Shown: positions 18,461-35,172 of the stretch, piece after piece
Layout of the letters: each line of letters begins with the position of its first letter
How positions within the stretch are numbered: position 1 is the first letter of the stretch
Origin: Scleropages formosus
Taxonomy: Eukaryota
Assembly (NCBI RefSeq): GCF_900964775.1
Contig: NC_041813.1
Coordinates: forward strand, 31,992,960-32,056,959
Reading direction: 5' to 3'
DNA: 64,000 nt
The notes under the pieces: model-generated
The model's input: the letters and a program-made list of their open reading frames with translations, nothing else
Database searches by the model: none
Told to the model about the DNA's origin: nothing
Made by a program: the position numbers and the translations under genes

Positions 18461-19499
18461 AAAAAGAGGAAAAAGAGAAGATCATGGTCAGAACAGTTCT
18501 GAGGAAATGGCAATAGAAAGGGAGCACTGACGTGTCATGTGAAGCGGTTTTCAGTTATTGGGTTATGACAGTAGTTTCTGAAGCAGAGCTACGGAACTTC
18601 CTATGACTTTCTGTGGCTCAGGAAAGTCACGTGACTGTGCCGAGCGTGAAGGTGACCACACTGCCACACTTTGTTTTATGGCAATTCACTTGAGGGGGAT
18701 CAACTACGCCTCCCTTCGCGCTCGTGCACCTGTTTGTTCGCGCTCCCTCGGCTGCTGTCACACCTGTACGAGCGCACATTACACGGACATGCTCTGCGAA
18801 TGAGGACGCGTCACGTCGCGTCTCCTGTTTATTAATGAATTACATTACCATATATTATTTATGTATTACTTCAACCACCGCCTTTGAGGATGGAAGCAAA
18901 ACTCTGTGTGAAGTCAGAGGGAATCTGGAAGGACCTGAGAGGCATGTTTCACACTCAGTTTTCTTTGTGGAAAAATGTCGGTTGTGTGTTTGCGCACACA
19001 CGCACACGCAAGCATTCACGGCGTACTGGAAGTACGGGCGCTGACGGTTAACAGTGAGGAGACTCAACTTTCCGGCTGAGGAACCTGATTGTTACTTCGC
19101 TCACAGCTGGCGTCTTGCACGAGATGTTCTTTGAAGTGCATGCCAGTGCTGCACGTAACACAAGTGTGATTCGTTTCCATGAATCTTCTTCAGTTTGGAG
19201 CGGCTCTCAATCACAATGCAAGCCTATACAGTGAAAAAAGCACACTCTGTTCACAGTGCCACTCAAGTGACGTGTTGCTCACCATCCCTGTGGCGCAGTA
19301 TGAAGTAGAACACACACACACACACACACACACGTCGCTGAGGTGTAGCGATGGCAATTGTGCGCAGCAGCGATCGACTTCTACACGCTCGTGTTTAGAA
19401 TGAGACTGGATACAGTTCGTTAATATGAACATAAACAGAAACAACGGAACTGCAGTGATGATGTTTGTTTGTGGTACGTACAGCATGAGGAATTATTAC

Positions 19500-20200
19500 T
19501 AACTACGTAACTACTCCTCTCTCTGGATTTCATCTAGTACCTCAGAACCATAGTAGTTCAGAACCTCAGTATCACTACCTCTGAACCCAAGTACCTCAGT
19601 AACAGTACCTATTACTCCAGTATCAATACCTCAGTGTCAGTACCATTACCACAGTAGCTCAGTATCAGTATCTTATTGCCTCATTGCCTGTGTCAGTACC
19701 TCAAGATTTATACCTCAGTACCTCAGAATCAGTACCTCAGTAACAGTACCTCATTACCCCAGTATCAATACCTCAGTATCATTACTTCAGTACCTCAGAA
19801 TCAGTACCTCAGTACCCCAACATCAGTACTTTGTTACCTCAGTATTAATACCTCAGTACCTCAGTGTCAGTACTTAATTACTCAGTATCAGTACCTCAGT
19901 ATTAATGCCTCAGTATCAATACCTCATTACCTCAGCATCAATACCCCAGTACCTAGTATCAAAACATCAGTACCTCAGTACCCCAATATCAGTACCTTGT
20001 TACCTCAGTATTAATACCTCAATACCTTAGTATCCCAGTATCAGTACTTTGTTACCTCAGTATCAGCACCTCAGTATTAATACCTCAGTACCTCAGTATC
20101 AGTATTTAATTACTTCAGAATCAGTACATCAGTATTAATACCTCAGTACCACAGTACCTAAGAATCTCAAGATCTCAGTACCACAGTACCTAAGAATGTC
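19500..20200. repeat. Minisatellite array of about 12-15 bp units (CAGTACCTCAGTAT, CAGTATCAGTACCT) upstream of protease copy 2
   Basis: About 700 bp of tandem units. ORF track entry 19676..20014 (QYLS repeats) is a translation of this array. Confidence 0.85.
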
Positions 20201-20428
20201 AGAATGAGGAATTTCTCGTGTGACACACACGTTGACATCATGCGTTCACACGAAAGGCGGCAACTGATCTGCAGCATAAAAAGCGCAGGCGAGTAGAGAG
20301 TAGAGCAAAGCGAACATCCGTCGTGCGAAGAGCACACGGCTCGTCTCCGCCCGGTAACACCGGCACACGTGTCACCCTAAACCTTTTACAAAGAAGCAGC
20401 GAGAAATAATCAGACAACGAAGAGGACG

Positions 20429-20483
20429 ATGACTCTGTGGACGGCTCTCTTCACTGTGGTGGCAGTAATTGCCATGGCAACAG
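20429..20483 (+). CDS. Serine protease copy 2, exon 1 (signal peptide MTLWTALFTVVAVIAMATG)
   Basis: ATG, hydrophobic core, donor CAG|gtagga. Identical to the sequence at 32255-32309. Confidence 0.6.
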
Positions 20484-21252
20484 GTAGGATTTATTCCACA
20501 TAGCATATGGCAGACACGATGATGGAGATAAAGAAATAAAGATTGCGGGGCAAGAGCCAGGACTGACGAGCCAGGCCAGTCTGTGTTCATACACACTCTG
20601 TAATTATTGGAACAATGAAAGTCAGCACGAAACTGTGACTAAATGACCAAAGTTGAAGAGAGAAAAGTTTGTCACCGGATGTTCTTTCCTTCTGTGACGT
20701 ACGACTCGTGTCAAACGGCGTCATTTATTAAATGATCAGAAATTAACGTGACGTGGGATATGTGGGCTTGAACGCGCAAAAACGTCCTCCAGGAGACCGA
20801 AGGGACCAAGTGCGAGAGGGAAAACGACGACACGGCGAGTACAGAGTAAGGGCACGTTCGTACAGTACCCATAAAATAAGAATGTTTCACCCTGGGCTGT
20901 TTCTTACACCATTCAAAGTGAGGAAAAGTTTGCAGTCTAACAACCTGAGGAATGTGTGACTTGAGGGAAAAATGAGTGTTTGGGCAATAATAGATCCCTA
21001 CAGCACAGGCTCTGCAGTTTTCAAGGACTGAAATGGTGCTGCAGAAAGTGCCGCGTGTCGTCGTAACACACATTTTGGGAAAAGTTGACAAACGTGCCAA
21101 ACACATTCCATGTTTCCCGTCCTCAGAGTCGACTCGCCTCCCCCTTATACACTTTCATAACTTTACTGTCCTGCCGGAGACCGAACTTCGTTTCCGGAAC
21201 GTTTCCTACTCAAGATCTCACTGACTTGTTCTTCTCTTCTTCTGCCTTCCAG

Positions 21253-21273
21253 AATCACACGCCCAGAAGCCAA
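21253..21273 (+). CDS. Serine protease copy 2, exon 2 (21-nt propeptide micro-exon)
   Basis: Acceptor cttccag|AATCACACGCCCAGAAGCCAA and donor |gtaagtg. Phase 1 in and phase 1 out, consistent with exons 1 and 3. Confidence 0.55.
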
Positions 21274-21706
21274 GTAAGTGCTCAATGCCGCTGTTACTCT
21301 TGTGTCGCGTGTTTGTCACACAGCAGTGCGGCCACAGGTTCGTGTTCAGTGTCAGCGCCAGAGCGGTCAGTCCAACAGCAGCTGGCCATCATCACTGAAA
21401 TAGAAGGAAACACTCCAGTTCGGGTTAAGGGCTCAAAACTGGACAGAAAATATAATCAGAATGTAAGTAGAGAAGTAAGAGTTTGATCCGGTGTCAAGGT
21501 CGAGATCTTCCCAGATCCCGGATCTTCATGCCTGCTGCTCGGAGCGGCGCAGTTCATGTCGCTGGGCCCTCTTGGGCTATGAGCTCCGCATGGGTGTGAA
21601 GCAGTTATGCAGCACTAGCTTTCTTATATCGCACATAATATCATGCCAAGTAAAAGAAGCTGTGACGTGTCAAGAACATCCGTGTTCACATGTCGTCCCC
21701 CTTCAG

Positions 21707-21875
21707 TGTGTGGTCAAGCCCCCCTGAACACCAGGATCGTTGGGGGGCAGAATGCTGCCCCGGGCAGTTGGCCCTGGCAAGTCAGTATGCGCTACCAGGG
21801 AAGTCACATGTGCGGAGGGTCCCTCATCAACAACCGGTGGATCCTGTCCGCTGCCCACTGCTTCACACTGATCAG
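21707..21875 (+). CDS. Serine protease copy 2, exon 3 (CGQAPLNTR|[43 protein letters not shown])
   Basis: IVGG N-terminus and AAHC motif. Donor ATCAG|gtatta. Confidence 0.8.
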
Positions 21876-33532: not shown

Positions 33533-33701
33533 TGTGTGGTCAAGCCCCCCTGAACACCAGGATCGTTGGGGGGCAGAATGCTGCCCCGGGCAGTTGGCCC
33601 TGGCAAGTCAGTATGCGCTACCAGGGAAGTCACGTGTGCGGAGGGTCCCTCATCAACAACCGGTGGATCCTGTCCGCTGCCCACTGCTTCACACTGATCA
33701 G
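33533..33701 (+). CDS. Serine protease copy 4, exon 3 (CGQAPLNTR|IVGG...[21 protein letters not shown])
   Basis: IVGG N-terminus and AAHC motif. It differs from copy 2 by one residue (SHM to SHV). Confidence 0.8.
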
Positions 33702-33830
33702 GTATTAATTACAGGATGTGACAATGAAGAGGTGGAGCAGTGTTACGTGTGTCATGTACCATGTTTTGCGGTATGATGTTTCACCCCTGATATCGTCTTA
33801 AACTGCACTCTCTCACATTCTCTCCTGCAG

Positions 33831-34099
33831 TGCGAATCCAAGCGGTTGGACTATGGTTCTGGGCCTGCAGACCCAGCAGGGTACCAACCCACATGCAGTG
33901 TACAGAGCAGTGAGAAGAATCATTGTTCATCCAAGGTACAATGGAAACACCAACAACAACGACCTCGCTCTAGTCCAGCTGTCCTCCACTATCAATTTCA
34001 GTGACTACATCCAGCCCATCTGCCTGGCAGCCGCTGGCAGCACCTTATACAACGGCACCGAGACCTGGGTCACCGGCTGGGGATACATCCAGTCAGGAG
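33831..34099 (+). CDS. Serine protease copy 4, exon 4 (...NPHAVYRAVRRIIVHPRYNGNTNNNDLALVQLSSTINFSDYIQPICLAAAGSTLYNGTETWVTGWGYIQSGG)
   Basis: Asp102 motif. Contains a mosaic patch relative to copy 2 (see findings). Confidence 0.8.
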
Positions 34100-34648
34100 G
34101 TGAGTGTGTTCGTCCTGAGGACCAGCAGGTGGAGGCGTAAATAGGGAACAGAAGCTACAAGTGAATTTTTTGCAGGTTAACATCCCTGGTCAGCTGGGAA
34201 ACTGAGTGAGATGAGCTGAATAACCTGAACTTAGACACTTAAAGAGGTACAAACCTGGCAACAAATTCCCAGAATTAAGCTTAACTGTAAGGGGACCCGC
34301 GTCATTAGAGAAGGCCTTCTCCAGCATTCCCGCTGGTGCTGCTGCCACTCTAGCATTCCGTCCCTCAAGGTGCTTTTCTCCAGTTCTTTTCCTTTCCGTT
34401 CTTCACAAACACACATACAAAAAACAGTGGATGAAGAGAAGTCCATACTGCCGCTGAAGGGCGGTACTGAGACGCTGCTGCCCACGATGCAGTGCTCTCT
34501 GTCCTCCTGGCACCTCAAACTGCATATCAGAACAAATTTGTCATTTACGAAATCAGAACTAAATCACGACTGCAGGCTGCTGTTTTGCAGTTAGTCCACC
34601 TGATTACAGCCTTGGGAGCTGCAACCAGTTGCTGTCCTCTTCCCTCAG

Positions 34649-34794
34649 TGTCCCTCCCTCCACCGGGGATTCTGCAGGAAGTCGAGGTGCCTGTCATTGG
34701 AAACGGGAAGTGTAACTGTCTCTATGGACCGGGGTCCATCACCAAGAACATGCTGTGTGCTGGGCTGCTGGCGGGGGGCAAGGACTCCTGTCAG
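34649..34794 (+). CDS. Serine protease copy 4, exon 5 ([49 protein letters not shown])
   Basis: The upstream intron is about 290 nt longer than in copy 2 because of an insertion at roughly 34170-34480. Confidence 0.8.
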
Positions 34795-34914
34795 GTACCG
34801 CAGCTCCCACAGCCTCCTGAGTCAACGTCTGTCTCAGAGAGCTCTCCACATATCCACAGCGAGTCCAGTGTGACCGTTCCCACTCACGCCAGAAATGTGT
34901 TTCCACCTGTGCAG

Positions 34915-35172
34915 GGGGACTCAGGAGGTCCACTGGTGGTCAAACAGGGTTCCGTCTGGGTCCAGGCCGGGATCGTGAGCTTTGGTAACGGATGTGCTGA
35001 ACCCAAATACCCAGGAGTCTACACCAGGGTGTCCCAGTATCAGTCCTGGATCAGCTCAGTAATCACCTCCAACCTGCCAGGATTTGTCACGTACTTCTCC
35101 AGTGGGAGAAACCGTGACGTCACCTGCTCTGCAACAATCGCAGTCACCAGTAACAGTATATTGCTTACATAA
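34915..35172 (+). CDS. Serine protease copy 4, exon 6 (GDSGGP...[23 protein letters not shown]). There is no long hydrophobic tail.
   Basis: Stop at 35170-35172. Compared with copy 3, about 300 nt covering the tail and the first downstream block is missing. Confidence 0.8.

Follow-up and report, generated by a model that had tools for sequence, protein, structure and literature searches.

Layered sequence similarity in a tandem array of four S1 serine protease genes of Scleropages formosus

We analysed a 64,000-nucleotide stretch of DNA from the arowana Scleropages formosus (contig NC_041813.1, positions 31,992,960 to 32,056,959 of the forward strand; hereafter the window), which holds a tandem array of S1 (trypsin-fold) serine protease genes. 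Self-BLAST, alignment and gene models agree on a direct array of four copies in which very young sequence is common to copies 2 and 4, as had been proposed from inspection of the letters alone (the sequence-only reading). The window has a G+C content of 49.7% and is free of Ns and gaps; besides spliced genes it holds short interspersed repeats and dinucleotide microsatellites. Given these features, and best protein matches in fish, a bacterial or viral origin was rejected. The four protease genes lie head to tail on the + strand, each with five exons separated by canonical GT-AG introns:

12780-16982, + strand: copy 1, exons 12780-12834, 14444-14612, 14744-15012, 16405-16550 and 16671-16982
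20429-23031, + strand: copy 2, exons 20429-20483, 21707-21875, 22005-22273, 22535-22680 and 22801-23031
26405-29577, + strand: copy 3, exons 26405-26459, 27942-28110, 28242-28510, 29000-29145 and 29266-29577
32255-35172, + strand: copy 4, exons 32255-32309, 33533-33701, 33831-34099, 34649-34794 and 34915-35172

By their Pfam matches and motifs, the four copies belong to Peptidase S1 (chymotrypsin/trypsin fold). Copies 1, 2 and 4 match Pfam Trypsin (PF00089) over profile positions 1-220 of 220 with 246-249 bits against a cut-off of 20.6 (E ~1e-73; 4e-73 for copy 1), and the copy 3 protein is 85% identical to that of copy 1. Every copy has an 18-residue signal-peptide exon, an R/K-IVGG activation site, the His/Asp/Ser motifs and an GGKDSCQGDSGG pocket of the Asp189 type; the His of AAHC, the D of NDLAL, the Ser of GDSGGP and the R/K-IVGG site are invariant across the four models and the outgroups. 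Exon 1 of copy 3 (26405-26459) has diverged, yet the exon alignment places its 55 nt and splice donor as in the other copies. The copies differ at their C-terminal ends. Copy 1 encodes 316 residues with a signal peptide, the catalytic triad and a hydrophobic C-terminal tail, and copy 3 also carries the tail. The triad is intact in the products of copy 2 (289 residues) and copy 4 (298 residues); the former is without the hydrophobic tail and in the latter it is truncated. Judged from these models, the genes are apparently intact and encode secreted or membrane-anchored proteases of the prostasin / PRSS27-like 'zgc:100868' family of Scleropages formosus.

The sequence common to copies 2 and 4, together with a second young tract in the flanks of copies 3 and 4, occupies the following intervals:

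19340-22905, + strand: young tract on the unit 2 side (partner 31047-35019), comprising upstream sequence, a minisatellite, the 5' untranslated region (UTR) and exon 1 through most of exon 5
31047-35019, + strand: young tract on the unit 4 side, with two private segments, 31715-31912 (a short interspersed element, SINE) and 34175-34462 (288 bp, in intron 3)
29898-30857, + strand: young flank tract 3' of copy 3 (F3), partner of F4 at 35215-35384 plus 35611-36400
35215-36400, + strand: young flank tract 3' of copy 4 (F4), split by a SINE at 35385-35597
30861-30979, + strand: older homology beyond the young flank tract (r3), 86.6% identical to r4 (37245-37363)

Units 2 and 4 have ~3.6 kb (19340 to ~22905) in common at 99-99.7% identity. 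In self-BLAST and global alignment, the minisatellite-rich segment 19329-20042 is 79% identical to 31036-31714, 20088-22349 is 96.6% identical to 31913-34175, and 22351-23018 is 97.9% identical to 34465-35132. Identity in 100-bp windows stays at 98-100% across 20206-22005 and again across 22206-22905, with dips to 63-88% in the minisatellite (19577-20205), 82-86% at 22006-22205 and 93% in the last 100 bp. Homology between the two units stops beyond 23018/35132; at this right end the tract fades into older homology (8 differences in the last 97 bp), and at the left end (19340/31047) it is cut off at a sharp non-homologous junction with unrelated DNA beyond. The left edge of unit 2 (19318-19339) is (CA)12, and further left there is no homology between the units. 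Two direct near-identical copies on the same strand, as left by a recent tandem duplication, are present, with 99.3-99.7% identity over most of 20206-22905 versus 32032-35019.

These alignments bear out the repeat described in the sequence-only reading at 19335-23030 and 31040-34140 (19340-23018 recurs at 31047-35132, with cores of 99.3-99.7%), and they move the end of the second copy from 34140 to 35132. Its offset of 11,826 nt is confined to 20206-22349; owing to the ~200-bp SINE and the 288-bp intron 3 segment of unit 4, the offset is 11,707 upstream of this interval and 12,114 downstream of it. Its estimate of ~99% identity describes the cores and fails in the minisatellite (19542-20205, ~75%), in exon 3 (22005-22273, 87.4%) and in the last 100 bp (93%). 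The open reading frame (ORF) pairs 20372/32198 and 20711/32537 are identical, as it had listed, and the pair 21085/32911 differs at 2 of 133 residues. The ORFs at 20372, 20711 and 21085 were rejected as genes, being chance frames inside intron 1.

A further revision concerns extent. An 11.8 kb segmental duplication had been proposed, and 11.8 kb is the spacing of the copies: identity of at least 99% covers only ~3.6 kb plus a separate flank tract of 0.96 kb. The interval 23240-29497, which comprises the spacer, copy 3 and its 4.7 kb upstream region, is single-copy in the window by self-BLAST. Because the spacer and copy 3 are present once, the young material amounts to 3.6 kb + 1.0 kb and not to an 11.8 kb unit. 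Homologous unequal crossing-over would have duplicated the whole 11.8 kb period and left both junctions homologous, and this is not what the locus contains.

Outside its near-identical cores, unit 4 differs from unit 2 by a SINE-like insertion in the minisatellite, 288 bp more in intron 3, a rearranged minisatellite and another 3' end. The features concerned are:

19542-20205, strand not assigned: minisatellite upstream of copy 2, with TCAGTACC-type units of 8/14/22/36 nt
31715-31912, + strand: SINE-like element of ~200 bp in the unit 4 minisatellite, absent from unit 2
35385-35597, + strand: SINE-like element in the 3' flank of unit 4; its target-site duplication of 13 bp reads GATTCATGATTAG
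34175-34462, + strand: 288-bp segment in copy 4 intron 3, with no copy 2 counterpart ('AT' at that point) and without a target-site duplication
30980-31046, strand not assigned: unique, CA-rich sequence where the unit 3 flank meets the beginning of unit 4

The minisatellite arrays of unit 4 (31245-31714 and 31913-32018) are only ~75% alignable with that of unit 2 while the adjacent DNA is 99.7% identical, which implies very fast turnover. The SINE at 35385-35597 has its empty site in the unit 3 flank at 30055-30067. The 288-bp segment, lacking a target-site duplication, may be either an insertion or a deletion. The SINE-like family (~200 bp, with (TG)n/(CA)n ends) is also found at 11342-11547, 38321-38529 (- strand), 39430-39640 and 63948-64000; Rfam and tRNA scans of the repeat gave no match.

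These private features bear on whether copies 2 and 4 could be one locus, or its two haplotypes, falsely placed twice by the assembler. Even modern assemblies of vertebrate genomes contain documented false duplications (PMC9516828), the identity of 99.7% over 1.8 kb is within the range of allelic variation, and an older short-read arowana assembly collapses this gene family. A false duplication should come with a gap or contig end, differences at the level of heterozygosity and the same flanks on both sides, a combination that we did not find. The window is gapless, the two copies have unrelated left flanks and different 3' ends, and the junction sequence at 30980-31046 is unique. Unit 4 has two SINEs (for one of which the target-site duplication is clean and the paralogous site empty), the 288-bp indel and a different minisatellite; a 19%-diverged patch in exon 3 separates the copies, and a distinct gene, copy 3, sits between them. 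The two proteins are also separate public entries, though their annotation comes from the same assembly and so is not independent evidence. Overall we consider an artefact highly improbable.

The 3' flanks tell of other partners. As the sequence-only reading had noted, the flank of copy 4 matches that of copy 3: around the SINE there are 0 differences in 170 positions (29898-30067 vs 35215-35384) and 9 in 790 (30068-30857 vs 35611-36400), or 9 differences in 960 bp (99.1%) over the whole of F3/F4. The young flank tract is bordered on both sides by older homology, ~80% at 29837-29897 and 86.6% at r3/r4, and r4 is set apart from F4 by an 844-bp indel (36401-37244). The sequence after r3, the junction 30980-31046, has no counterpart after r4. 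The 3' flank of copy 2 also resembles that of copy 3, as had been reported; the aligned segments, 22520-23239 and 28985-29702, are 91.7% identical. Two features lie downstream of copy 2:

23032-23239, + strand: copy 2 3' flank (t2), homologous to 29497-29702 in the tail and flank of copy 3, with 22 differences over 206 bp
23527-23611, + strand: last-exon relic between copies 2 and 3, left by an additional gene copy that has decayed

The relic has 77.6% DNA identity to 22930-23014 in copy 2 exon 5 (tblastn E=0.002) and, on this similarity, is evidence for past gene loss in the array. The t2 segment still encodes the lost hydrophobic tail, out of frame. In copy 2 a local replacement of ~25 bp within 23016-23114 makes the stop, and in copy 4 (35130-35172) the equivalent of 29498-29836 is missing, a 340-bp deletion. 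The two tails were thus lost through different lesions, and the copy 2 and copy 4 products may be soluble forms or the genes may be on their way to decay.

A single 11.7 kb tandem duplication (upstream region, copy 2, spacer, copy 3 and flank, 19340 to ~30979), followed by loss of ~6.9 kb from the second unit, would explain in one step why the 5' part of unit 4 is like unit 2 and its flank like unit 3. Such a loss, whether a simple deletion or the outcome of recombination between the homologous parts of copies 2 and 3, would have removed most of copy 3 together with the spacer and the 3' end of copy 2, leaving unit 4 as a 'Lepore-type' product beside its parents. This account also explains the spacing of ~11.7-11.8 kb; the pooled divergences of the young tracts, all 0.3-1.2%, fit it, as do the copy-3-type bases of copy 4 over 35036-35096. 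However, it predicts ~99% identity around the young flank tract, where we observed ~80% (29837-29897) and 86.6% (r3/r4), and identical sequence after r3 and r4, where 30980-31046 has no counterpart. The 3' end of copy 4 (35100-35146) is moreover only ~90% identical to copy 3, with some bases as in copy 2. We therefore regard the 11.7 kb duplication followed by this deletion, the main rival account, as unlikely.

The differences between copies 2 and 4 are unevenly spread. Over 2813 aligned positions (20206-23018) there are 55, distributed as 4/1501 in the 5' UTR, exon 1 and intron 1, 1/169 in exon 2, 1/129 in intron 2, 34/269 in exon 3 (87.4% identity over 22005-22273), 4/261 in intron 3, 1/146 in exon 4, 1/120 in intron 4 and 9/218 in exon 5. 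Divergence in the young tract outside the 5' UTR-exon 1-intron 1 segment, the minisatellite and exon 3 is 0.4-1.5%. The 34 differences in exon 3 fall within one 220-bp window (permutation p<5e-5) and define a patch in each copy:

22018-22234, + strand: divergent exon 3 patch of copy 2 (partner 33844-34060 in copy 4), with 32 of the 55 differences
33892-34018, + strand: exon 3 patch of copy 4, private over 33892-33936 (17 changes, encoding an ancestral-like RRIIVHPRY) and copy-1-like over 33942-34018

Four-copy site patterns show that copy 2 equals copy 1 over 22076-22110 and is private or ancestral-like over 22116-22234. Copy 4 is private at 17 sites in 33892-33936, where copies 1, 2 and 3 agree. 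Over 33942-34018 it equals copy 1 at 76 of 77 positions, versus 7 differences to copy 3; copy 2 is private there, and three sites in this interval have copy 4 equal to copy 1 and copy 2 equal to copy 3. The nearest paralogue switches at 33936/33942 and at 34018/34033. A second, smaller cluster lies at the end of exon 5 (35036-35096), where copy 4 has bases of the copy 3 or copy 1 type. At the protein level, the alternatives in exon 3 are an ancestral-type RRIIVHPRY / THDND...QPVCL and a derived SKITVNPNY / NNND...QPICL. Outgroup fish proteins carry RIIVHP, THDND and QPVCL, which suggests that the 5' part of the patch in copy 4 and its 3' part in copy 2 are ancestral-like and that the copy-1-type residues are incoming. 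From these patterns, copy-1-type sequence appears to have overwritten 22076-22110 in copy 2 and 33942-34018 in copy 4. It is equally possible that the copy 4 patch is an island of the older copy 4 that escaped replacement. Under both readings the site patterns identify the exon 3 patch as templated exchange, not point mutation.

Rapid untemplated point mutation under positive selection after the duplication would be the alternative to templated exchange. In its favour, nearly all changes in the patch alter amino acids, and the exon in which it lies would encode the surface loops round Asp102 of S1 proteases (the 70-80 and 99 loops). Against it, 32 substitutions in 217 bp stand beside 4 in the adjacent 1501 bp, and the 'new' states are those of copy 1 in one or the other copy, synonymous positions and the three sites with copy 4 equal to copy 1 and copy 2 equal to copy 3 included. 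The alternative states match outgroup species. We give selection on point mutations hardly any credence as the source of the patch.

Similarity across all four copies is consistent with the same kind of exchange at other times. Alignable sequence among copy 1, copies 2/4 and copy 3 is confined to exon 2-intron 2-exon 3 (~660 bp) and exon 4-intron 4-exon 5 (~500-600 bp); exon 1 is ~70% identical, and no alignment is possible for intron 1, the central part of intron 3 or most of the intergenic DNA. These two blocks, with some 3' flank, make up a layer of 87-96% identity. The array has three similarity layers: an ancient one that is unalignable, an intermediate one at 87-96% and a young one at 99-99.7% (3.6 kb + 1.0 kb). 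Both young tracts are embedded in older surroundings of 80-96% identity. Within the shared blocks introns are conserved at least as well as exons. Between lineages, 2-5 of the 120 positions of intron 4 are different, compared with 14-16 of the 146 in exon 4; for intron 2 the count is 6-11 of 129-131, close to that of exon 2. Since the borders of the tracts ignore exon/intron limits, this pattern is a signature of interlocus gene conversion and not of purifying selection, and we read the intermediate layer as concerted evolution by that process. The array as a whole has the features expected of gene conversion, namely clustered differences with paralogue switches and non-coding sequence homogenised as much as coding. 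In the same direction, intron 1 of copies 2 and 4, for which there is no paralogous donor, is the part in which these two copies have diverged least.

Copies 1 and 3 had been taken as an older pair. They are alike, with block identities of 93.3% and 96.4% versus 91-94% for other pairs, but only in the two blocks common to all four copies and in no flank. In a tree that also includes homologues from other fish and a more distant paralogue from arowana, the four copies are a single clade (bootstrap 100%); copies 2 and 4 group at 87%, copies 1 and 3 at 52% only, and the older pair is thus weakly supported. Between copies 1 and 3, exon 4 (16405-16550 vs 29000-29145) differs at 1 of 146 sites, intron 4 at 5 of 120 and exon 3 at 16 of 269, and their exon 4 is apparently a further young conversion tract. 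The peptide that had been cited for this pair is exon 2 read through into intron 2.

Taken together, we consider it likely that this is an old four-unit array that received two recent non-reciprocal transfers on top of its older layers, a history that we infer as follows. Unit 4 would already have been an old member of the array before the young transfers. A promoter-to-exon-5 segment would then have been copied from unit 2 to unit 4 or the reverse, in a one-sided homologous repair or unequal exchange event that may have initiated in the near-identical homology of intron 4/exon 5 and terminated non-homologously at the CA repeat. A separate conversion of ~1 kb, bounded by indel heterologies, would have occurred between the flanks of units 3 and 4. 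Later events would include the two SINE insertions, the 288-bp indel and minisatellite turnover. Copies 2 and 4 would each have lost the C-terminal hydrophobic tail independently, and exon 3 of each would have received short patches (35-100 bp) of copy-1-like sequence by conversion. The locus so described bears the marks of interlocus gene conversion superimposed on unequal exchange. Repeated unequal crossing-over, the process favoured in the sequence-only reading, is retained to the extent that the shuffled flanks need more than one recombination event; it is not the sole process, since the discordant patches in exons 3 and 5 and the sharp non-homologous left junction make homologous unequal crossing-over alone insufficient.

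Several points weigh against this history. Divergence within the young layer is uneven (0.27% in intron 1 vs 1.2% elsewhere, Fisher p=0.0035), so that more than one event or continuing conversion would be needed. For the copy-4-private tract 33892-33936 (45 bp) the window holds no donor (tblastn finds the four genes and the exon 5 relic). We infer from protein-level outgroups only that this tract is retained ancestral sequence; a database search with the 62-residue patch returned a single 85-residue arowana fragment, which is without the patch. The two SINEs private to unit 4 are just 91% identical to each other, which would be awkward if both had inserted after a 99.7% duplication. Finally, the window represents one haplotype only, which does not fix the order and direction of the events.

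Haemoglobin Lepore/anti-Lepore, the red-green opsin genes and the CYP21/C4 module are classic arrays shaped by unequal crossover and gene conversion. The arowana array shares with them its direct repeats, conversion tracts that ignore exon/intron borders and a hybrid-looking unit whose 5' part is like one neighbour and whose 3' flank is like another. It differs in that a single homologous crossover between copies 2 and 3 would delete or duplicate the spacer, neither of which is seen, and in that one arowana junction is non-homologous, at a CA repeat. Among vertebrate S1A proteases, birth-and-death and gene conversion shape the evolution of the human 16p13.3 cluster of tryptase/PRSS21/22/27/33 genes and of the mast-cell protease and kallikrein clusters of rodents. 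The likeness here lies in direct tandem five-exon trypsin-fold paralogues, lineage-specific expansion and patchy exchange between copies; the arowana array differs in species and locus, beside TAO2-kinase-like and KCTD10/13-like genes. It is a textbook tandem S1-protease cluster with duplication, unequal exchange and gene conversion, and involves no new principle. As such it offers a clean small example of layered concerted evolution, with young tracts, an old framework and one non-homologous junction.

A more far-reaching possibility is that the array works as a cassette-exchange system, in which short conversion tracts would repeatedly shuffle exon 3 surface-loop versions and the young copies would switch from anchored to soluble through loss of the tail, with substrate specificity or localisation diversified under selection. 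If true, this would resemble what is proposed for immune protease clusters, but we think it very unlikely.

A putative assignment to the prostasin type comes from database names and structural ranking. The closest homologues are named 'zgc:100868', 'serine protease 27-like' and 'prostasin-like', and in a PDB search the top solved-structure relatives are enteropeptidase, prostasin (E=2e-63) and hepsin, with enteropeptidase marginally above prostasin. With the glycosylphosphatidylinositol-anchored proteases of the prostasin (PRSS8) / PRSS27 type and zebrafish zgc:100868, the arowana genes have in common these names and the PDB match, the signal peptide, R/K-IVGG and the GGKDSCQGDSGG motif. Copies 1 and 3 end in hydrophobic stretches of ~20 residues, whereas copies 2 and 4, without the tail, differ. 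Literature searches on this arowana gene family, on 'zgc 100868' and on prostasin-type tandem duplication in teleosts found nothing relevant.

All four genes are already present in Ensembl/UniProt, partly as fused models. The 316-residue protein built from the window exons and a Scleropages formosus UniProt entry are 96% identical where they align, and the arowana models P0001, P0002, P0013, P0020, P0052 and P0057 reproduce residues of the four copies exactly. Copy 1 residues are identical to UniProt A0A8C9UXY4/A0A8C9R4S9, copy 3 matches A0A8C9R459 and copy 4 matches the UniProt models P0052/P0057. The public models (A0A8C9R4S9, A0A8C9R510, A0A8C9UXY4 and A0A8C9R459) fuse copy 1 with copy 2 and copy 2 with copy 3 and run into introns, and they never use the 55-nt signal-peptide exon 1 (12780-12834, 20429-20483, 26405-26459 and 32255-32309). 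The practical value of the analysis is in annotation, where corrected five-exon models can replace fused or truncated ones.

Arowana individuals are likely to differ in copy number and in their exon 3 haplotypes, and the locus is one that short-read assemblies collapse. In an older arowana assembly, JARO02003209.1 (L001:10680-11030) has at a contig end a collapsed protease fragment in which a single N bridges the start of exon 2 and the middle of exon 3. Among its residues are both copy-3-type and copy-4-type states, its flanks are unrelated to the window, and the contig has only 292 bp in common with it; the fragment is a chimera of short reads or else a further paralogue.

In the spacer between copies 2 and 3, the long ORFs (24837-25511 and 26042-26560) had no match in Pfam scans, which thus revealed no transposon protein. 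Copy 3 has a telomere-like interstitial (TTAGGG)n / GTTAGG repeat at 26962-27022, within its intron 1. Three neighbouring genes were found in the window:

368-6944, - strand: TAO2-kinase-like gene (PDB 1u5q, E=3e-20)
48596-49210, - strand: BACURD / KCTD10/13-like BTB-type exon (PDB 5fta, E=5e-11)
54636-56706, - strand: Sushi-repeat gene

The TAO2-like and KCTD10/13-like neighbours are reminiscent of human 16p11.2.

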